From: Terrimicrobiaceae bacterium
GTDB lineage: Bacteria > Verrucomicrobiota > Verrucomicrobiia > Chthoniobacterales > Terrimicrobiaceae
DNA: 64,000 nt
Direction of reading: 5' to 3'
Assembly: GCA_044342325.1 (NCBI GenBank)
Contig: JBIIPZ010000007.1
Span: 1-64,000, forward strand
Shown here: positions 9,800-31,928 of the stretch, piece by piece
How positions within the stretch are numbered: the stretch's first letter is position 1
Layout of the letters: each line of letters begins with the position of its first letter
Made by a program: the position numbers and the translations under genes
The notes under the pieces: generated by a model
Database searches by the model: none
Seen by the model: only the letters and a program-made list of their open reading frames with translations
Told to the model about the DNA's origin: nothing

Positions 9800-10877
9800 G
9801 GCGGCCTTTCCTGCGGGAGGCGACGATGACAAGCAGCACAAACAAGCCTCCGCTGACAAACATCCAGAATCGGCTTGGTTCGGTTTTTTGAGCGGCTTCA
9901 GAAGGTGCCTTGGTTTGCTGGGTCAACTCCGAGCCGTCCTCTGCATGCTCATGCCCATGCGCCGCGTCGAGGGCCTCTTTTAGCGATAGTGTTCCTCCGC
10001 CGGCAAATGCGAGCGAGTAGGCCCCACGGGTCACGATCTCGTCGGCGGGTAGGAGACCAGACACGATCTCGGCCTTGCTGGCGTTCATACCTCCAACAAC
10101 AACCGGAGTTTTGACAAAGGCATTCGGGATTTCAAAGTCCTTCACATAGACGAAGCGGCTTGAGGCATCCCCTTGCAATGCGACGCGGGGAATTGAAAAA
10201 ACGCCCTCTTTTTTTCCAACGACAATCGAAAACTCGGCACGCATTCCTGGTCGAAGGGCAAAATCGGGATTGTTGACATGGAAGGCCGCTTCAACCGTGT
10301 CGCTCGCGGCATCCGCCACTGCCCCCAGATGCTCTAATTCCGCATCGAAAGTTCTGCTAGGGACCGCTGAGACGGAAATGCGTGCGGCTTGTCCTTGTTT
10401 CAGTTGCCCCGCCAGATGCTGCGGCACACGGGCGATGGCGTAGACTTCCGAAAGATCCAAAACCTCCGCGAGCACCTTCTCGGGATCAACCGGCTCGCCC
10501 GGCGCGATGTGGGTCTCGCTCACGAGTCCCGAGATCGGGGAGGGGAGGGCGATGGTGGGCGGTGGGTTGCCCGGTTGCCGGCTCTCCACCAGAATGGCAG
10601 TCTGTCCTTTTTCGATCGGGTGGTCGTTTTTGATATAAACTTCGAGGGCGCGCCCGGGAACCCGACTGCTGATCACCGCGCGACGGCCGGGATAGACTTC
10701 GATTTCTCCCAGTGCAAAAACGCTCTCCTCAAAGGTCGTTTCCTCGACGACTTGAGTTTCGATGCGTAGGTTTTTTACCCCGTTTTCATCGAGGATGACG
10801 GTTTTGCTCGCGCTCGATCCTGTGGCTGCCAGTAGGGTGGATGAGGCAAGGAGGAATAGTAAAAAAATCGGTTTCAT
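9789..10877 (-). CDS. RND periplasmic adaptor subunit (CzcB/CusB-like) with His-rich linker and C-terminal TM helix
   Basis: SPISGLV lipoyl-like motif, LRPGMRAEF, position between TolC and RND genes. Confidence 0.9.
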   Translation of the reverse strand: MKPIFLLFLLASSTLLAATGSSASKTVILDENGVKNLRIETQVVEETTFEESVFALGEIEVYPGRRAVISSRVPGRALEVYIKNDHPIEKGQTAILVESRQPGNPPPTIALPSPISGLVSETHIAPGEPVDPEKVLAEVLDLSEVYAIARVPQHLAGQLKQGQAARISVSAVPSRTFDAELEHLGAVADAASDTVEAAFHVNNPDFALRPGMRAEFSIVVGKKEGVFSIPRVALQGDASSRFVYVKDFEIPNAFVKTPVVVGGMNASKAEIVSGLLPADEIVTRGAYSLAFAGGGTLSLKEALDAAHGHEHAEDGSELTQQTKAPSEAAQKTEPSRFWMFVSGGLFVLLVIVASRRKGRHAK

Positions 10878-22424: not shown

Positions 22425-22502
22425 TTGGGAGCGCCAACGTCCTCGTTTGCTTCTTATACCGTTTTTCTTTCGATGAGCCGACGGGGACGTCCGCGCGCCT
22501 GA
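22425..22502. repeat. REPIN (inverted REP doublet, family A), degenerate
   Basis: TTGGGAGCGCCAACGTCCTCGTTTGC 22425-22450 (+) and an inverted copy 22477-22502, matching the REPs at the RAYT gene. Confidence 0.8.
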
Positions 22503-24124: not shown

Positions 24125-25609
24125 TCAACCATCGTTTTTTGGCGACTCCTCGAGCAGATTGGCACTCAATTCACGCGCCTGACGGGAACCCTCTGGGCCG
24201 AGTTCCTTCTCAAGAGCTTTGGCATGGCGCGGTTCGGTGCCTGCTTCTATGGAAAGATACATCCAAGCCAAGGCTTTAATTTTGTCCTGCGGCACCGCAA
24301 ATCCGCAAGCATAAGCATGCGATAAGTTTGCTCTTGCCTTGGCATTGCCGTTGGCAGCGGATTTTCGGAACCAATGGACTGCTTCCACACGATCTTGAGA
24401 AAGTCCAAATCCCCGCCAATATGCCCATCCGAGATTATTTTGTCCCATATCCTCGTTATTTTCGGCAGCCAAACGATAGAGCCTGAGCGCCTCGGCAGGA
24501 TTCTTCGGCACTCCTTCGCCATGCTCATAAGCCCACCCAAGATTCACCATCGCAGTGGAGTGGCCCTTCCGAACTGCTTTTTGCAACCACCTCGCTGATT
24601 CTTCAGGTTTTTTGGGCACTCCCACGCCATTCTGAAGGGCCCACCCTATCGCCTGTTGCGCTTCCGCATCACCAGTAAGGGCGGCCTTTAAATACCACTC
24701 AAACGCTTTTTCATTGTTTTTCGGAACGGCTTTCCCCTCTCGGTAAGCTTCGGCAAGCTTCAGTTGCGCATTCACATCGCCCAGAACAGCCTTTGTTTTA
24801 ACAATACGAAATCTCTCCTCCTCGTCGGCAGGAACCCCTTCAGCATACTGAAAAATGGCCTCCCATTTATCCAAATCGTAACTGTCCGCGTTTTGCATGC
24901 CGCGCAGTATCCAAGAATTTGATACTTTTTCATCTCTCCCAACCCCGAGACCGGTTCGATAAGCATACGAAAGCATAAACTGAGAGAGCGCGTCCCCTTG
25001 CTTTGCGGCTTTACGATACCATGCCAAAGCCTCGTTCCAATCTTGAGTAACGCCGCGCCCCGAACGATATGCATCTCCCAATTGTCGCGCAGCTCCAGCG
25101 TAGCCTTTTTTTGCTGCCAACCGATACCATTTTACCGCCTCGGCGGGGTCTTGCTCAACTCCCTCTCCAGTTTCATAACTGCGTCCTACATTATAAATGC
25201 CAAAAAGTTCTCCTTGAGCTGCAGACATTCGATACCACTTTAATGACTCAGAAAGATCTCGCTGCACTCCATCACCTGCGGAATACATCGCAGCGAGGTT
25301 GTTTTGAGCAATAGCATAACCATGCTCTGCCGAACGGCGATACCACGCCACAGCCACTTTCGGATTGCGGCCAACCCCCTTTCCTCTGTCATAGGCTACA
25401 CCAAGCCGATACTCGGCGGGGGCATAATTTTGCTCCGCAGAACTTCTATACCATTGCAAAGCAATAGATTGGTTTTTCTTCATGAAAATCCCCCATTCGT
25501 GCCCGTATCCAATCAAAAATTGTGCGGCGGGATTGGGGTAGTAGTTTTCAACCAAAAATACCACAGCAAGCACCCATAGCTTTAAGCCCGAAATCGCAGC
25601 GCTTATCAT
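24125..25609 (-). CDS. Sel1-repeat (tetratricopeptide-like) protein
   Basis: Many AQxNLGxxYxxGxGVxxDxxEAxxWYRKAA-type repeats. Confidence 0.92.
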   Translation of the reverse strand: MISAAISGLKLWVLAVVFLVENYYPNPAAQFLIGYGHEWGIFMKKNQSIALQWYRSSAEQNYAPAEYRLGVAYDRGKGVGRNPKVAVAWYRRSAEHGYAIAQNNLAAMYSAGDGVQRDLSESLKWYRMSAAQGELFGIYNVGRSYETGEGVEQDPAEAVKWYRLAAKKGYAGAARQLGDAYRSGRGVTQDWNEALAWYRKAAKQGDALSQFMLSYAYRTGLGVGRDEKVSNSWILRGMQNADSYDLDKWEAIFQYAEGVPADEEERFRIVKTKAVLGDVNAQLKLAEAYREGKAVPKNNEKAFEWYLKAALTGDAEAQQAIGWALQNGVGVPKKPEESARWLQKAVRKGHSTAMVNLGWAYEHGEGVPKNPAEALRLYRLAAENNEDMGQNNLGWAYWRGFGLSQDRVEAVHWFRKSAANGNAKARANLSHAYACGFAVPQDKIKALAWMYLSIEAGTEPRHAKALEKELGPEGSRQARELSANLLEESPKNDG

Positions 25610-25628
25610 TAAACCTTTTTATTCATGG

Positions 25629-25871
25629 TTATTTTTTGCGTAGTTTGCGGAAATCGCAGGTGGTTTGGATGTTGAACCAGAACTGGGCACTCTGCTTGAA
25701 GAATTTGCTGAGTTTGAGGGACATTTCGGGCGTGATGCTGCGGCGGCCGAGCACGATTTCGTTGATGCTGCGTGGGCTGATGCCGAGGGCTCGCGCGAGC
25801 GCGTTTTGGGAAATGCCCATGGGCACGAGATAGTCTTCAAGGAGAATTTCACCGGTTTTGAGTTCGCTCAT
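25629..25871 (-). CDS. higA: HigA/VapI family antitoxin (XRE HTH), no adjacent toxin
   Basis: [37 protein letters not shown]. Confidence 0.85.
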
Positions 25872-25877
25872 GGCACC

Positions 25878-26684
25878 TCACTTTCCAGCGGAAAACGCCG
25901 CGTCGAGCTTGGCGAGCAGTGCCAAGCCCTTTTTCGTCGAACTACGCGATGCCATCGCTCGGAAGCGGGATTTGGAACTGGGAGCGCCAACGTCATCGTT
26001 GGCAGATTGGTGCGTAGATGCCGACGGGGACGTCGGCGTTCGTGCGCTGGACCACGGCCAATCTTCGGCGCGCTGGCACAGGCCGGCTTTGACGGGGTTT
26101 TGCTGGATGTAGAGCACGACATTCTCGAGATGTGTGTCGTTGCGGATAAAACGGTCCCAGTATTCGCGCATCCAAAGGTGCTTTGGGTCAGGGATGCCAA
26201 GTTGAAACTCCTCATTGTGGGTCAATGCCCATCGCGCGGTGATGGACTTCCAACCTTGGACGATCTTTGCTAGCGGCGTGAGGGTTTCGAGGAGCACATG
26301 AACATGGTTCGGCATGATGCACCATGCGATGAGTCGATAGCGTTGACCGTCGAAATACTGGAGAGAATGCCGCATTTGTTCGGCCAATTTCGGATGGCGC
26401 AGGGCGCAACAGCCCATGCCGGCATCGAGCCATTGCTCGATTTTTTCGCGCCTGTGTATGGAGCGCTGGTTTTCGGGAAGTTCCAGCAATTCCGCTTCCA
26501 GTTGCGTGAGTTTTTCCTGCGGCAGGCTGTCGGCGAGTCGAAAGGTGACGGCTTGGAGGAGTTCTTTGGCGTCCCGGTGTGGGAGATAGCCGCGGGAATA
26601 CCACTCTTTGGGAGCGCCGACGACGCCATTGGCTGTAGGAGCGCCGACGTCCCCGTCGGCTTCTTCGGTTTGATTTGTATTCAT
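25878..26684 (-). CDS. REP-associated tyrosine transposase (RAYT, HUH Y1)
   Basis: SRGYLPH, VTFRLADSLP, CIMPNHVH (HUH), WMREYWDRFIR, YIQQNPVKAGL, WPWSSA; flanked by REPs. Confidence 0.92.
   Translation of the reverse strand: MNTNQTEEADGDVGAPTANGVVGAPKEWYSRGYLPHRDAKELLQAVTFRLADSLPQEKLTQLEAELLELPENQRSIHRREKIEQWLDAGMGCCALRHPKLAEQMRHSLQYFDGQRYRLIAWCIMPNHVHVLLETLTPLAKIVQGWKSITARWALTHNEEFQLGIPDPKHLWMREYWDRFIRNDTHLENVVLYIQQNPVKAGLCQRAEDWPWSSARTPTSPSASTHQSANDDVGAPSSKSRFRAMASRSSTKKGLALLAKLDAAFSAGK
25978..26045. repeat. REPIN (family A) overlapping the RAYT 3' region
   Basis: Hairpin GCCAACG-TCAT-CGTTGGC within 25978-26003 (+) and GCCGACG-TCCC-CGTCGGC within 26020-26045 (-). Confidence 0.85.
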
Positions 26685-26722
26685 GGGGGTTGGTGGGCCG
26701 ACGGGGACGTCGGCGCGCCTAC
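26608..26722. repeat. REPIN (family A) at the RAYT 5' end plus a degenerate third copy
   Basis: GTAGGAGCGCCGACGTCCCCGTCGGC 26635-26660 (+), GTAGGCGCGCCGACGTCCCCGTCGGC 26697-26722 (-), degenerate copy ~26608-26633. Confidence 0.9.
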
Positions 26723-28941
26723 TATTTTTCCAACCTCATCAGTGATGGGATCGTGTTCTCGAATGGGGTGCGGAGTTTTTCCACGGGCCAGGTGAAGGTT
26801 TGGCCGGCGGCTTGGATGGCTAGGTTTTGAGTGGTGGTGACTTCGCCGAGGCGGGTGTGGGGGACGCTTCGGGATTTGAGGAAGTCGAGGATTTCGCTGG
26901 CGTGGCGTGGGGCGAAGGTGATGACGATGCGGGATTGCGACTCGTTGAAGAGGACGACATCGGCGCGGGTGCCGGGGATTTCGGTTTTGGCTCCGATGTT
27001 TCCGCTTAGGCAGGACTCGGCGAGGTTGACGGCGAGGCCGCCTTCGGAGCAGTCGTGGGCGCTTTTGACGAGGCCTTGGCGGATGAGGTCGCGGACGGCA
27101 TTTTGGACAGCGAGTTCTTTGGCGTATTCGAGCTGCGGCGGGGCGCCGGCTTTGCGGCCGTGGACGGCGAGGAGGTAGTGTGACGCGCCGAGTTCGTTGC
27201 CGGGTTCGCCGATGAGGAGGATGATGTCACCCGCGGCTTTGAAGGCTTGGGTGGTGATGTGCTCGGGTTTTTCAACGAGGCCGACCATGCCGACGGTGGG
27301 CGTGGGGTCGATGGCTCCGGCGGGGGATTCGTTGTAGAGGCTCACATTGCCGCCGGTGACGGGTGTGTCGAACGCGCGGCAGGCTTCGGCGAGGCCTTCG
27401 ATGGCTTCGCGGAGTTGGAGGAAATTTTCGGGTTTATGGGGATTTCCGAAATTCAGGTTGTCCGTGACGGCGAGCGGGGTCGCGCCGGTGCAGGCGATAT
27501 TGCGCGCGGCTTCGGCCACGGCAATGCGGCCGCCTTCGCGGGGATCTTGTTTGCAGTAGATCGCGTTGCAATCGGTGGATGCGGCGAGGATTTTATTGGC
27601 CTCGCGGACGATGAAGACGGCGGCGTCAGAGCCGGGCAGGACGGTGGCGCCGAGGCGGACCATGTGGTCGTATTGCTGCCAGACCCATTGTTTGGAAGCG
27701 ATGCTCGGATGGGCGAGGAGGGTTTCGAGAGCGGTGATGGGATCGGCTTCTGGCACGCTCGCGAGGTCGAGGGGCTCGGGAGCTTTTTTCGGAGCGGCTT
27801 CGCGGGAGTAGAGCGGGGCTTCGTCGGCGAGCTGGCGTGCGGGGATTTCGACGGCGATTTCGTTGCCTTCGCGGACGCGCATCATTCCGTCGTCGTTGAC
27901 CACGCCGACATGGGCGTAGGGGAGATCCCATTTTTCAAAGATGGCGCGGACTTTGTCTTCCTCGCCTTTTTTAACGATGACGAGCATGCGTTCTTGGGAT
28001 TCAGACAGCAGGATTTCGTAGGGGGTCATGCCGGTTTCGCGTTTTGGCACGAGGTTGACATCGATTTCAACGCCTGTGCCGCCACGGCTGGCGGTTTCGC
28101 AGGTCGAGCAGGTGAGGCCTGCGGCGCCCATGTCTTGGATGCCGGCGACGCAGCCGCTGGCGAGGAGTTCGAGGCAGGCTTCGAGGAGGAGTTTTTCGCG
28201 GAAGGGGTCGCCAACTTGCACGGCGGGGCGGTCTTCCTTGGATTCTTCGGTGAGCTCGCGCGAAGCGAAGGCGGCGCCAGCGAGGCCGTCACGGCCGGTT
28301 TCCGCGCCGACATAGAAAACGGGATTGCCAACGCCCTTGGCGGCTCCGCGGGCGATTTGCTCGTGCTTGAGGATGCCGAGACAGAAGACATTGACGAGGG
28401 GATTTCCCGAGTAGCTGTCGTCGAAATAGACCTCGCCGCCGATGGTCGGGATGCCGATGCAATTTCCGTAGTGGGCGATGCCATTCACCACGCCTGCGAA
28501 GAGGCGGCGGTTGGTGGCGGATTGTTGGGAGTCACCACGAATGTCGCCGAAGCGGAGGGAATTCATCGAGAACACGGGGCGCGCACCCATGGTGAAGATG
28601 TCGCGAATGATGCCGCCGACGCCGGTGGCTGCGCCTTGGAAGGGCTCGATGGCGCTGGGGTGATTGTGGCTCTCCATCTTGAATGCGATGGCCCATCCAT
28701 CGCCGATGTCGATGACGCCGGCATTTTCCTCGCCTGCCTTCACGAGCACGCGCGGGCCGGTGACGGGGAATTTTTTCAACTCGAGCTTCGAATTTTTGTA
28801 GGAGCAATGCTCACTCCACATGACGGAGAAAACGCCGAGTTCGGTGAGGTTGGGCTCGCGTCCGAGGATGGATTTGATGCGTTCGTATTCGTCGGGCGTG
28901 ATGCCGTGTTTGGAGATGATTTCGGGTGTGATGGCGGACAT
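26722..28941 (-). CDS. purL: Phosphoribosylformylglycinamidine synthase subunit PurL
   Basis: [41 protein letters not shown]. Confidence 0.98.
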
Positions 28942-28954
28942 ATTGGAAGAATTT

Positions 28955-29405
28955 TTAACCACGGAGGACACGGAGAGCACGGAGGTGAAGAAGAGGGTTT
29001 TTACAGGGAAAGGCGTTTGATGCCGTTTTTTAGGAGTTGGACGTTGAAGTTGATCAAGAGGCCCGTTCGGAGGTTGGAGAGTTTCAAGTAGGTGAGGACT
29101 TGGGCGGTGTGTATGGGGAGGAGTTGGTCGGTGGATTTCAGTTCGATGAGGACTTTGTTTTCAACGATGAGGTCGGCGAGGAAACCACAATCGAAGGTGA
29201 GGTTTTTGTAGCGGACGGGGATTTCTTGTTGCGTGGTGGCGGAGAAACCTCGGTCGGCTAACTCGAATGCGAGGCATTTCTCATAGACCGATTCGAGTAG
29301 GCCAGGACCGAGTTCACGGTGCACGGAGATGGCTGCGCCAATGATGGCGTCCGTCAGGGAGTTGTTTTCAAACTCCTCCGTGTTCTCCGAGTGCTCCGTG
29401 GTTAA
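28955..29405. mobile_element. Putative miniature mobile element: GxxExxY gene within 31-bp terminal inverted repeats ending in TTAA
   Basis: Left 28955-28985 TTAACCACGGAGGACACGGAGAGCACGGAGG; right 29375-29405 reverse complement TTAACCACGGAGCACTCGGAGAACACGGAGG (28/31); sits between purQ and purL. Mobility is inferred. Confidence 0.7.
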
Positions 29406-29408
29406 CAT
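29001..29408 (-). CDS. GxxExxY protein (PD-(D/E)XK nuclease-like)
   Basis: [39 protein letters not shown]. Confidence 0.93.
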
Positions 29409-30085
29409 TTCAATAAGCTATCGAAGATCACTAATCCGTCGGTGCTGCCGAGGGCGGCGTCGCAGGCGCGCTCGGGGTGCGGCATGAGGCCGAAGACATT
29501 TCGGGTTTCGTTGCAGATGCCGGCGATGTTTTCGCGGGAGCCGTTGGGGTTTGCGGCGTCGGTGGTCTGGCCTTGGGCATCGCAGTAGCGGACGAGGATT
29601 TGGTCGTTCGCGTTGAGGTCGGCCAGGGTGGTGTCGTCTGCGAAGTAGCATCCCTCGCCGTGGGCGATGGGGATATTGAGGACTTGGCCTTTGGTGGCGG
29701 CGCGGGTGAATCGCGAATTGGTCGATTCTACACGGATGCTTTTGTGTTTGCAGACGAAGTGGAGGCCTTTGTTGCGAACGAGGGCGCCGGGGAGGAGTCC
29801 GCTCTCGCAGAGAATTTGAAAGCCGTTGCAGATGCCGAGGACTGTGCCCCCGGATGCGGCGAAACTTTTTACCGTTTGCATGATCGGCGAGAAGCGGGCG
29901 ATGGCTCCGCAGCGGAGGTAGTCGCCGTAAGAGAAGCCTCCAGGAATGATGACGGCGTCGAAGCCGGCGAGCGAGGTATCCTTGTGCCAGACGAAGTCGG
30001 CAGAGGCGCCGGGAAGGTTATTGAGAGCGAGAACGCAGTCCTGGTCGCAGTTCGAGCCAGGGAAGCGGATGACGGCGAATTTCAT
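29402..30085 (-). CDS. purQ: Phosphoribosylformylglycinamidine synthase subunit PurQ
   Basis: [31 protein letters not shown]. Confidence 0.98.
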
Positions 30086-30312
30086 TATTTGCTGATCGAG
30101 TAGTCCTCGATGACGGGGTTGGAGAGGAGGTCTTTGGAGATGCGGTGGATTTCGGAGTCTGGCGTCGAGTCGGGGAGTTCGAGTTCGATGACTTTGCCAA
30201 TGCGGACGCGTCCCACGCCGGTGAGGCCGAGGTGGCGTATGGCTTCAGCGGCGGCGGCGCCTTGAGGGTCGAGGACGGATGGTTTCGGCAGAACGGTTAC
30301 GAGGACTTTCAT
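30085..30312 (-). CDS. purS: Phosphoribosylformylglycinamidine synthase subunit PurS
   Basis: [24 protein letters not shown]. Confidence 0.96.
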
Positions 30313-31928
30313 GGTGCGGAGGTTTTCGTTTCGGGATGATCTGAACAAGAGGATTTTTTATTTTTTCTGAATTGGATGAGCGAAATGGCGAGTGCAAGCA
30401 GGCTTATGACCAGACAGGAAATCGAAAAGACTTCGCCGTAGCGTGTGAAGAAGGTCGGCTGAGTGGATGTGGGGACATTGATTTTGCTGAAGAGAACGCC
30501 TTGGAGAAAGGTGCTGCCCGAGGGGTCGCGGAGGACCTCGCGGACGACGCCGAGGCGGTCGATGGCACATGTGACACCGGTGTTTGCGGCGCGGATCATG
30601 GGGGTTTTATTTTCTACGCAGCGGAAAATGGCGTTGTTGAGGTGCTGAACCGAGCCAGCGCTTTTGAGAAACCATCCATCATTTGTGACGACCACGAAGG
30701 ATTGGGCTCCGAGCAATGCGAAGCGGCGTGCGAGATCGGCGACGGTATCCTCAAAGCAAACGAGCGGTCCGAGTTTCACTGGCTTTGATTGAAGTTCGAG
30801 GACGGTATATTCCTTTCCGGCGTCGAAGTCCGAGGGCACCAGATCGCCTACGATTTTGGCGAGAAGCGGGAATTCCTCGCGCAGCGGGACATACTCGCCG
30901 AAGGGAACGAGGTGCATTTTGTGGTGGAGTTGGGCTTCCTTCCCCTGCTTGGTCAACAAGGCGATAGAGTTGTAGTCGCCATCGTTGCCCCAGTGGGCTG
31001 TTCCAATGAGGAGGTCTCCCGTGTATTGCTCGGCGAGTCCTCGAACGAGGTCCCAGGTGAATTGATTGCCGAGAAGCGGGTTGGGCGTGGAGGATTCAGG
31101 CCAGAGAATCAGGTCGGGCGCCATGGCGATCGCCGGGAGGGTTTGGTTTTTTAGAGTTTCGAGAACCTCAAGTTCGAAGTTTGGATCGTTGCGGACATTT
31201 TGAGGAATGTTCGGCTGAATGGCGGCGAAGCTGAGTGGTTCGCTAGCTGGTTCCGGGCTGAAAAGTTGCCGGACGCCGTAGCTCCATGTGAGGGCGACCA
31301 AGGCTATGGTGATGGCAAAGTCATAGTGTGCACGCCGCGCGCCGCGTTTGATTTCGAGGAGCAGGCGTTTAACGGTCGCCGCGAGCATGAGGTTGGTCAT
31401 CGCAACCAAAAAGGAAATTCCTCCTACGCCGGTGATGTCGGCGATCTGTATGAGGGCGATATTTTCATGCAGTGCAATGCCGAGACCATTCCATCCGAAG
31501 GCCGGAAAAATAACGCCACGGAGCCATTCCAGTGCGACCCATGCGGCAGCGCCAAGGACGCAGACGCGAAGATTGTGGATCGACCGCAGCCAGGATTCTT
31601 CGCTGGTGCTAGTGTTGACGAGTGCTCTGGCGAACAGCGTCCATGCGCTGAAATAAAACGCGAAATACAAAACAAGCAGCACATAGCCAGGCCAGGTGAG
31701 TGTCGTGAGCCAGTAAGCGCTCATCGCAAAAAAGACCAACCCGCTTGCGTAGCCGAGGCACGCTGTTCTCAGCCAATCCCGCCGCCTCGCCGGCTGGCAA
31801 AACCAGACCGCGCATACAAGCGGGGTTAGCGCCACCCAGCAAAGATCGCCAAGACCAAATGGGGGATAGCACAAACCAAGAAGCAGCCCGCTTAACAATG
31901 CCAAAAACCAAGGAAACACACGCGACAT
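30309..31928 (-). CDS. lnt: Apolipoprotein N-acyltransferase
   Basis: TM N-terminus, QPNIPQ, WPES, KMHLVPFGEY, CFED, TNDGWF, RAANTG. Confidence 0.95.
   Translation of the reverse strand: MSRVFPWFLALLSGLLLGLCYPPFGLGDLCWVALTPLVCAVWFCQPARRRDWLRTACLGYASGLVFFAMSAYWLTTLTWPGYVLLVLYFAFYFSAWTLFARALVNTSTSEESWLRSIHNLRVCVLGAAAWVALEWLRGVIFPAFGWNGLGIALHENIALIQIADITGVGGISFLVAMTNLMLAATVKRLLLEIKRGARRAHYDFAITIALVALTWSYGVRQLFSPEPASEPLSFAAIQPNIPQNVRNDPNFELEVLETLKNQTLPAIAMAPDLILWPESSTPNPLLGNQFTWDLVRGLAEQYTGDLLIGTAHWGNDGDYNSIALLTKQGKEAQLHHKMHLVPFGEYVPLREEFPLLAKIVGDLVPSDFDAGKEYTVLELQSKPVKLGPLVCFEDTVADLARRFALLGAQSFVVVTNDGWFLKSAGSVQHLNNAIFRCVENKTPMIRAANTGVTCAIDRLGVVREVLRDPSGSTFLQGVLFSKINVPTSTQPTFFTRYGEVFSISCLVISLLALAISLIQFRKNKKSSCSDHPETKTSAP

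Follow-up and report, generated by a model that had tools for sequence, protein, structure and literature searches.

A GxxExxY nuclease-family gene bracketed by inverted heptamer arrays at the purQ–purL junction of a Terrimicrobiaceae genome, with related cassettes in other bacterial phyla

The purQ–purL cassette and its nuclease-family protein

In a 64,000-nucleotide stretch of DNA from a Terrimicrobiaceae bacterium of the phylum Verrucomicrobiota (contig JBIIPZ010000007.1 of assembly GCA_044342325.1; hereafter the window), the genes purQ and purL, which are usually adjacent, are separated by one short gene of the GxxExxY family that is bracketed by inverted arrays of a seven-nucleotide unit, three to an arm in a 9-nt phase. 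All genes of this locus lie on the minus strand: purS (30085-30348), purQ (GATase_5; 29402-30085), the GxxExxY or PDDEXK_3 nuclease gene (29001-29408; 135 amino acids) and purL (AIRS/AIRS_C; 26722-28941), which follows the cassette in every one of the closest loci whose contig extends that far; purS and purQ meet here in an empty TAATG overlap. The gene-proximal (5') arm (29375-29411, minus strand) reads GAAATG-TTAAC, then CACGGAG-CA-CTCGGAG-AA-CACGGAG-G, with units at 29394-29400, 29385-29391 and 29376-29382 on the same strand, and contains both the purQ stop codon (TAA, 29402-29404) and the start codon of the GxxExxY gene (ATG, 29406-29408). The distal (3') arm (28949-28985), read on the plus strand, is GAATTT-TTAAC, then CACGGAG-GA-CACGGAG-AG-CACGGAG-G, with units at 28960-28966, 28969-28975 and 28978-28984 (plus strand), and ends 7 nt from the purL ATG.

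A preliminary description of this sequence had recognized inverted arms around the gene, identical at 28 of 31 positions, with two of the three mismatches in the spacers. Both statements hold for the arms at 28955-28985 (plus strand) and 29375-29405 (minus strand): by reading, the spacer mismatches are at positions 13 and 23, and the third, at position 16, lies in unit 2 (CTCGGAG). Sequence reading and translation likewise agree with that description in that the purQ stop is the TAA of the right-hand TTAA, that the gene's start overlaps it as ATGTTAA, that the 12 N-terminal residues are encoded by the arm, and that conceptual removal of the element with one TTAA leaves TAA, AAATTCTTCCAAT (13 nt) and the purL ATG. 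The arm pattern TTAACCACGGAGNNCACGGAGNNCACGGAGG matches the window only twice, at the two arms, and matches none of 100 shuffles, and the two-unit pattern CACGGAGNNCACGGAG, with at most one mismatch, has 4 matches, all within the arms, against 0.02 expected. The 64-kb window holds no second copy of the GxxExxY gene or of the heptamer arrays. A scan of 28700-30500 found no sigma-70-like promoter, which is weak evidence as the scan may not suit this phylum, and an Rfam search of 25000-31000 (E <= 1) returned only a chance U4 match.

For comparison, Genome Taxonomy Database (GTDB) species genomes were scanned with the window protein, yielding 525 confirmed relatives from 599 candidate stretches, and 80 loci were kept, the 17 closest of which (L001-L017) come from Terrimicrobiaceae/Spartobacteria metagenome-assembled genomes (MAGs) at 58-94% identity; all 80 were chosen for carrying the gene, so that every purL-adjacent site is filled by construction. 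These relatives bear on the limits of the element, which had been drawn at TTAA. TTAA is indeed present at both ends, but the inverted repeat as delimited by a repeat search is 37 nt long (28949-28985 and 29375-29411, 86% complementary), and L004 and L006 share TGAAATGTTAACC with the window despite a different upstream gene, an amidase (GatA-like). The 37-nt repeat and this common sequence together place the ends of the element about 6-7 nt outside TTAACC, so that the last two sense codons of purQ and its stop, which lie inside the 5' arm, are element sequence. The 5' terminus TGAAATGTTAA (window 29402-29411; L004:1810-1830; L006:9990-10010) carries TGA, TAA and ATG in three different frames, which by reading are the amidase stop, the purQ stop and the element's own start codon, respectively.

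The encoded protein matches PF13366 PDDEXK_3 (E 4e-43; 146.9 bits against a cut-off of 22) and TIGR04256 GxxExxY (E 1.5e-44; 151.1 bits against a cut-off of 35). Twelve residues are invariant in an alignment of 73 relatives (H30, G34, G36, E39, Y42, Y67, D79, E89, K91, Y107, N120 and F121); the set E39...D79...E89xK91 is intact in the window protein and a QxxxY motif stands at 103-107. The AlphaFold (AF2) model, with a pLDDT of 92.7, shows the element order H-H-E-E-E-H-E, and its best Foldseek match is the Cas4 structure 4ic1 (TM-score 0.54, E 2e-3, probability 1.0), followed by a second Cas4 (4r5q) and 2wiw, with Hjc at a probability of 0.97 and lambda-exonuclease-like enzymes also near; E-values range from 2e-3 to 2e-2, none being below 1e-3. 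Invariant catalytic residues, a confident model and Cas4/Hjc-like nearest folds thus uphold the PD-(D/E)XK-like fold assumed at the outset, and the product belongs, on the strength of sequence and model, to the PD-(D/E)XK nuclease superfamily, with a predicted nuclease activity. The likeness to Cas4/RecB-like enzymes and Hjc lies in the PD-(D/E)XK core with its E...D...ExK...QxxxY residues. The protein differs from Cas4, for which Foldseek gave weak E-values no better than 2e-3, in being half its size and in lacking the four-cysteine iron–sulfur cluster: it has two cysteines (45 and 74), neither among the invariant or nearly invariant columns of the 73 relatives. A sequence search of the PDB gave no relative, only a single chance match (E 0.35), and PADLOC and PHROGs gave marginal matches only (AbiEii, E 0.005; a Cas4-like phrog, E 0.002), with no meaningful defence or phage family.

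The family is very large: of 1.84 billion cluster representatives, 40,579 match it at E <= 1e-3, and 19,623 still do so at E <= 1e-10. Its gene is under purifying selection, the ratio of nonsynonymous to synonymous divergence (dN/dS) being 0.02-0.45 in the 20 pairs, out of 21, that allowed a computation. The arm-encoded N-terminus recurs among the best 120 database matches (78-95% identity), 93 of which start (M)LT[TA] and 17 MTT[EK]; a repeat-encoded peptide of the TE-x-TE type, with 2 to 5 units, is found in 107 of these 120, and 19 have in-frame insertions of 20 or 26 amino acids inside the repeat. In the DNA these are inserts of 60 and 78 nt, seen in the 5' arms at L002:6575-6689, L008:9858-10010 and L009:2720-2880; they keep the frame from the arm's ATG, both kinds end in GAGTCAAAG, and the only further match in the examined loci is one of 24 nt at L015:279-302. 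GxxExxY proteins with two domains, fusions of 240-295 amino acids (P0121-P0135), were observed as well, the second domain lacking ExK in the three that were read (P0121-P0123), which hints at a pseudo-dimer and at a dimeric working unit for the family. A search of the literature for GxxExxY, PDDEXK_3, PF13366 and TIGR04256, in which subscription journals were not covered, found nothing on function; a table in PMC3424549 lists the function of PDDEXK_3 as 'Unknown', and 10.1101/2021.01.26.428298 mentions a GxxExxY domain beside a reverse transcriptase. Searched as text, the arm motifs led only to unrelated primer sequences.

Heptamer arms and gene-less hairpins across phyla

For each gene, we scored the strongest local inverted repeat between its 5' flank and its 3' flank, with a threshold of at least 15; pseudo-genes of the same length, displaced by 3-7.5 kb within the same stretch of DNA, served as controls. 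The threshold was reached by 42 of 76 testable loci versus 2 of 436 controls, one control having an inverted repeat that was very long and of a different kind, and loci L018-L080 alone contributed 34 of 61. At least 8 phyla are represented among the positive loci, and the conjecture that GxxExxY genes generally carry inverted, iterated heptamer arrays is supported by this outcome: a PD-(D/E)XK gene of about 120-135 codons bracketed by inverted heptamer arms is a general architecture. The arms consist of 2-4 iterated heptamers of the form C[AG]CN[AG]AG in an 8-10-nt phase, behind a short terminus TTNACC that precedes the first unit in loci of Chloroflexota, Bacteroidota, Thermodesulfobacteriota and Verrucomicrobiota. 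Unit types include CACAGAG, CACGGAG, CGCAAAG, CACGAAG, CACAAAG, CGCAGAG and CACCAAG, and both arms of an element are of the same type. The two arms change together between lineages. The coupling of protein clade to unit type, a co-variation for which a test had been proposed, is weak and no more than suggestive in a poorly resolved tree (12 of 70 branches starred).

Mismatches between the two arms of an element fall on 40 of 721 unit positions and 52 of 121 spacer positions; because the regular expression for the unit fixes 4 of its 7 positions, the fairer comparison is about 13% for units against 43% for spacers. Transition mismatches, considered as G-U pairs in the sense RNA, were compatible in 28 cases and incompatible in 27, without bias. 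The conservation of units over spacers and the lack of G-U bias favour the heptamers as recognized motifs over selection for a stem. The 1.25 Mb of DNA contain 151 arrays of at least 3 units, against none in a shuffle; in these loci, which were fetched for the gene, 98 of the arrays are no more than 200 nt away from a GxxExxY gene. Two regions, L080:900-9330 and L057:1-1045, are dense with tandem or nested arrays, mostly without a recognizable gene between them: the first has 18 arrays in 9 kb and the second shows repeated 5'-type arms.

A GxxExxY gene lies inside 45 of the 87 convergent array pairs, whose inner distance is then 393 nt in the median, and the remaining 42, in 19 loci, are gene-less, mostly with inner distances of 12-132 nt (for example, L019:248-417, L037:10650-10728 and L044:17790-17880). 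Gene-less copies, for which a search of the window genome had been proposed, were thus found in related loci, but none lies within the 64-kb window. Among arrays far from a gene, the fraction whose unit is the one most frequent in the arms of the local gene is 0.50, versus 0.13 when loci are permuted, and none of 2000 permutations reaches the observed value. A divergent paralogue (38% identity; L007:12713-13108 and L010) is flanked on either side by a full hairpin, and its unit is C[AG]CAGAT. Solo arms occur at L005:654-678 and L015:4040-4064, and L015 also has a 70-nt gene-less heptamer hairpin at the purS/purQ junction, a junction that is a TAATG overlap in the window and 10 close relatives and an unrelated 23-30-nt spacer in four others. 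In two Betaproteobacteria-like MAGs, a gene-less element was observed at an orthologous site (L019:13708-13881 and L035:11743-11909), with nearly identical arms, flanks of 88-90% identity and an interior of about 115 nt that could not be aligned by eye.

Alleles and neighbours of the cassette

The gene lies directly upstream of purL in 15 of the 17 closest loci, the contigs of L003 and L017 ending first, and purS-purQ lies upstream of it in 14 of the 17. The upstream gene is the amidase in L004 and L006 and a 6PGD-family gene, in place of purQ, in L010; breakpoints of operon rearrangement thus coincide with the element in these three loci. Arm types vary at this site. In L005 and L007 the 5' end carries TTGACC and CACAGAG units, of which the 3' end (...GGTCAA) is the exact inverse, and L015 and L016 have CACCAAG units at both ends. 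As TTGA and TCAA stand in inverted and not in direct order, the terminal tetranucleotide belongs to the arm.

Across the window and 11 close genomes, the synonymous divergence (dS) of purL is 0.17-0.45 against 0.14-1.70 for the GxxExxY core, the gene's synonymous divergence being 2-6 times that of its flanks, and the GxxExxY genes form about seven allele classes. Between the window and L003, for example, dS is 0.20 for purQ and 0.81 for the GxxExxY gene, and alignments with L003, L005, L007, L008, L009 and L011 show 93-100% identity in flanks and arms against 40-85% in the gene interior. A second, decayed element stands between the gene and purL in L012 and L014, and a decayed complete element lies upstream of the intact one in L013. 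The L010 element (9992-10429) is a hybrid, with a 5' arm of the TTGACC/CACAGAG type and a 3' arm of the TTAACC/CACGGAG type; such arms, together with the foreign upstream gene, bear the mark of recombination between elements from two separate loci. Because the gene's dS exceeds that of the flanks and decayed tandem copies persist, we conclude from these alignments that the cassette has been exchanged at a stable site by repeated replacement or recombination and not simply inherited. Relatives that keep the gene at this locus had been named in advance as an observation that would speak against a mobile element; the gene is indeed kept, but the dS excess and the decayed tandem copies indicate exchange.

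With neighbours called as the longest open reading frame (ORF) within 400 nt, 69 loci have an ORF on each side of the gene; both neighbours are co-directional with the gene in 45 of these loci, and both are opposite in 6. The neighbours are, as a rule, partners in one operon, and the junctions occupied include thiG/thiC (L020, L024), trpE/trpD (L023), trpD/trpC (L027), trpF/trpB (L028), nadA/nadB (L061), map/methyltransferase (L032, L033, L060), pdxB-like/gnd (L048, L052), aroE/uvrB (L056, L077), gatA/gatB (L068, Opitutaceae) and dmpF/dmpG (L046), and two MacB/FtsX permeases flank the gene in L021, L026 and L045. The distance from the upstream stop to the arm is usually 0-25 nt, and L023 and L027 again show stop/start overlaps; the earlier proposal that the element uses host transcription fits these sense-oriented operon positions, often just after or overlapping an upstream stop. 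A second, unrelated pur junction is occupied in a Desulfobacterales MAG (L022:6917-11301), where a cassette of 55% identity with CACAGAG arms lies between a purS-purL fusion and purQ. In a Ferruginibacter MAG (L049:4633-9285), a cassette splits the homocysteine S-methyltransferase part of MetH from the remaining gene, and the downstream part of MetH has an in-frame DUF559 (Vsr-like endonuclease) domain between its B12-binding domains. The gene was found in 8 of 72,556 plasmid records, mostly megaplasmids, and in none of 50,697 phage records, a scarcity that speaks against carriage on these classical mobile replicons.

The window also contains a REP-associated tyrosine transposase (RAYT) gene 40 bp downstream of purL (25878-26684, minus strand; NF047646, 86.4 bits against a cut-off of 80), with linked repeats at 25981-26042, 26611-26719 and 22428-22499. 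Their GC-rich REP-like motif GACGTCGGCGCTCC has 7 matches in the window against 0.96 expected, 5 of them around the RAYT gene, and is translated into the N- and C-termini of the RAYT protein (GDVGAPT). A RAYT gene occupies the same place in L006 and L008; L007 and L010 have a second GxxExxY gene there.

A candidate repeat-plus-nuclease system

Our tentative preference is to read the segment as a member of a widespread class of repeat-plus-nuclease cassettes that resembles REPIN-RAYT systems and that, as far as could be found, is undescribed in the literature. The REPIN-RAYT literature describes a gene flanked by inverted short repeats, dispersed gene-less hairpin doublets and a position inherited vertically over long times. 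The present cassettes likewise combine a single repeat-flanked gene with gene-less inverted doublets, which occur in related genomes. Their position is kept in the 17 closest loci, but their alleles are discordant with the flanks. They differ in the enzyme, a PD-(D/E)XK protein (PF13366) in place of an HUH/Y1 transposase, in the repeat, 2-4 iterated heptamers in place of the GC-rich palindrome of REP, and in the gene's sense orientation within operons, the exchange of alleles at the site and a very low copy number in the clade.

Under the repeat-plus-nuclease reading, the nuclease, which would probably work as a dimer, would recognize the heptamer arrays by their sequence motifs and would cut at or near them; recombinational repair, with the arms as homology, could then copy the gene into array-bearing sites or swap its alleles. 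The gene-less hairpins would be non-autonomous partners of the nuclease, and expression would come from the host operon, in the window's clade through the stop/start overlap with purQ (ATGTTAA). The preliminary description had suggested for the protein a role as end-binding mobiliser, which it may have. A bolder version, which we regard as conceivable but doubtful, holds that a new class of prokaryotic elements has GxxExxY proteins as its own sequence-specific nucleases, each paralogue recognizing its own heptamer, cutting array-bearing sites into which arm-guided repair would copy it (a homing into hairpins) and spreading gene-less ones.

Several observations weigh against the preferred reading. 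The association of protein and arrays is positional only, 34 of the 76 testable loci lack clear arms, and because loci were fetched for the gene, the enrichment of arrays near it is partly built in. Protein clade and unit type are weakly linked, and two cross-phylum pairs share CACGAAG (SH-aLRT 88 and 81). Among the 42 loci with arms, there is no target duplication or other insertion scar that would define a transposition chemistry. In the window and the 17 closest loci (292 kb), arrays are confined to the cassette plus one solo arm (L005:654-678), which gives little sign of current activity in the window genome. The excess dS could partly reflect a codon constraint weaker than that of purL, although the discrete allele classes are not so explained. 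Neighbour calling was crude, with at least 4 miscalled (L004, L006, L010, L015 downstream), which leaves the co-direction bias understated.

In a rival account the gene would be passive cargo with an unrelated role, for instance in toxicity, defence or repair, and either general recombination or another enzyme (Y1/RAYT-like or another transposase) would spread and maintain the hairpins. Even in a gene-selected sample, pairs without a gene are nearly as frequent as pairs with one (42 versus 45), many genes lack clear arms, and in the window, L006 and L008 the gene immediately downstream of purL is RAYT-like. The RAYT of the window, however, owns an unrelated GC-rich REP motif, 98 of the 151 arrays stand no farther than 200 nt from a GxxExxY gene, the unit of far arrays follows the arms of the local gene, the divergent paralogue carries the divergent unit C[AG]CAGAT, and no meaningful defence or phage family was matched, all of which makes passive carriage unlikely in our judgement. 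A device acting at the RNA level is also an improbable account, in which the arms would pair in the operon transcript for processing, stability or translation control, RNase III or the GxxExxY protein would cut, and the gene-less hairpins would be cis-regulatory sites benefiting the host. It draws on the minimum-free-energy fold of the sense RNA, in which the arms close the element and bury the start codon (z = -6.3, with none of 100 shuffles as stable), on the sense orientation of elements within operons and on the inclusion of RNA endonucleases in the PD-(D/E)XK fold, as stated in PMC3424549. The spacers, however, are not kept complementary, so that a recognized motif fits better than a stem; sense-strand transitions show no G-U bias, solo arms exist and no Rfam family was matched, and the dispersal of repeats and the exchange of alleles would be left unexplained.

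The fixed site in relatives, an allele ancestry deeper than that of the flanks and the decayed copies are what a classical free-standing homing endonuclease gene would produce, by cutting a specific empty purQ/purL junction into which repair then copies the gene, the arms being incidental. Homing genes pass through cycles of invasion, decay and reinvasion, PD-(D/E)XK homing endonucleases exist, and the likeness extends to a small nuclease ORF between conserved genes whose intact, divergent and decayed copies turn over at a persistent site. We consider this explanation very improbable, as the cassettes share one arm design across dozens of unrelated junctions and gene-less hairpins with the same units are unexpected for site-specific homing; homing genes are not known to have terminal inverted arrays or gene-less hairpin partners. 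Least credible of all is a cut-and-paste transposon that duplicates a TTAA target, as the preliminary description had proposed from the TTAA at both window ends and the tidy junction left by conceptual excision. The ends of L005 and L007 (TTGACC...GGTCAA) are inverted, not direct, arms from several phyla have kept TTNACC as their end, both the inverted repeat and the shared boundary run 6-7 nt beyond TTAACC, and a direct repeat of at least 3 bp at the arm boundaries is found in 0 of 42 loci (a 2-bp repeat in 7 of 42, against 2.6 expected). The segment is not a TTAA-duplicating cut-and-paste transposon.

Other known elements resemble the cassette in part. Transposons with terminal inverted repeats and miniature inverted-repeat elements (MITEs), including TTAA-specific piggyBac, share with it terminal inverted repeats, internal iterated sites and short gene-less derivatives; the cassette differs in that it has no target-site duplication and that TTAA belongs to the arm. 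No known transposase class (DDE, HUH, serine or tyrosine recombinase) was found inside the element, the only ORF family there being PF13366. TnsA of Tn7 is a PD-(D/E)XK nuclease that acts at transposon ends with iterated protein-binding sites, working with the DDE transposase TnsB and generating 5-bp duplications, whereas the nuclease is the sole gene of the present element. An integron attC site was rejected, as the end GTTAACC is unlike the GTTRRRY core familiar from attC sites and arrays stand at both ends of the gene.

For annotation, these cassettes mean that arms add spurious acidic/basic tripeptide repeats to predicted N-termini and that stop codons of upstream housekeeping genes are provided by the element, and recombination between cassette copies marks breakpoints of operon rearrangement (L004, L006 and L010). 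PF13366/TIGR04256 is a very large family without an assigned function, for which the motif architecture supplies a concrete candidate substrate. If the nuclease acts on the arrays, the family would be a source of small, programmable nucleases specific for heptamer arrays, and the cassettes would represent a second, mechanistically different long-lived repeat-plus-enzyme system in bacterial chromosomes. If GxxExxY proteins are heptamer-specific homing nucleases, a PD-(D/E)XK-only counterpart of REPIN-RAYT would extend across tens of thousands of protein clusters.

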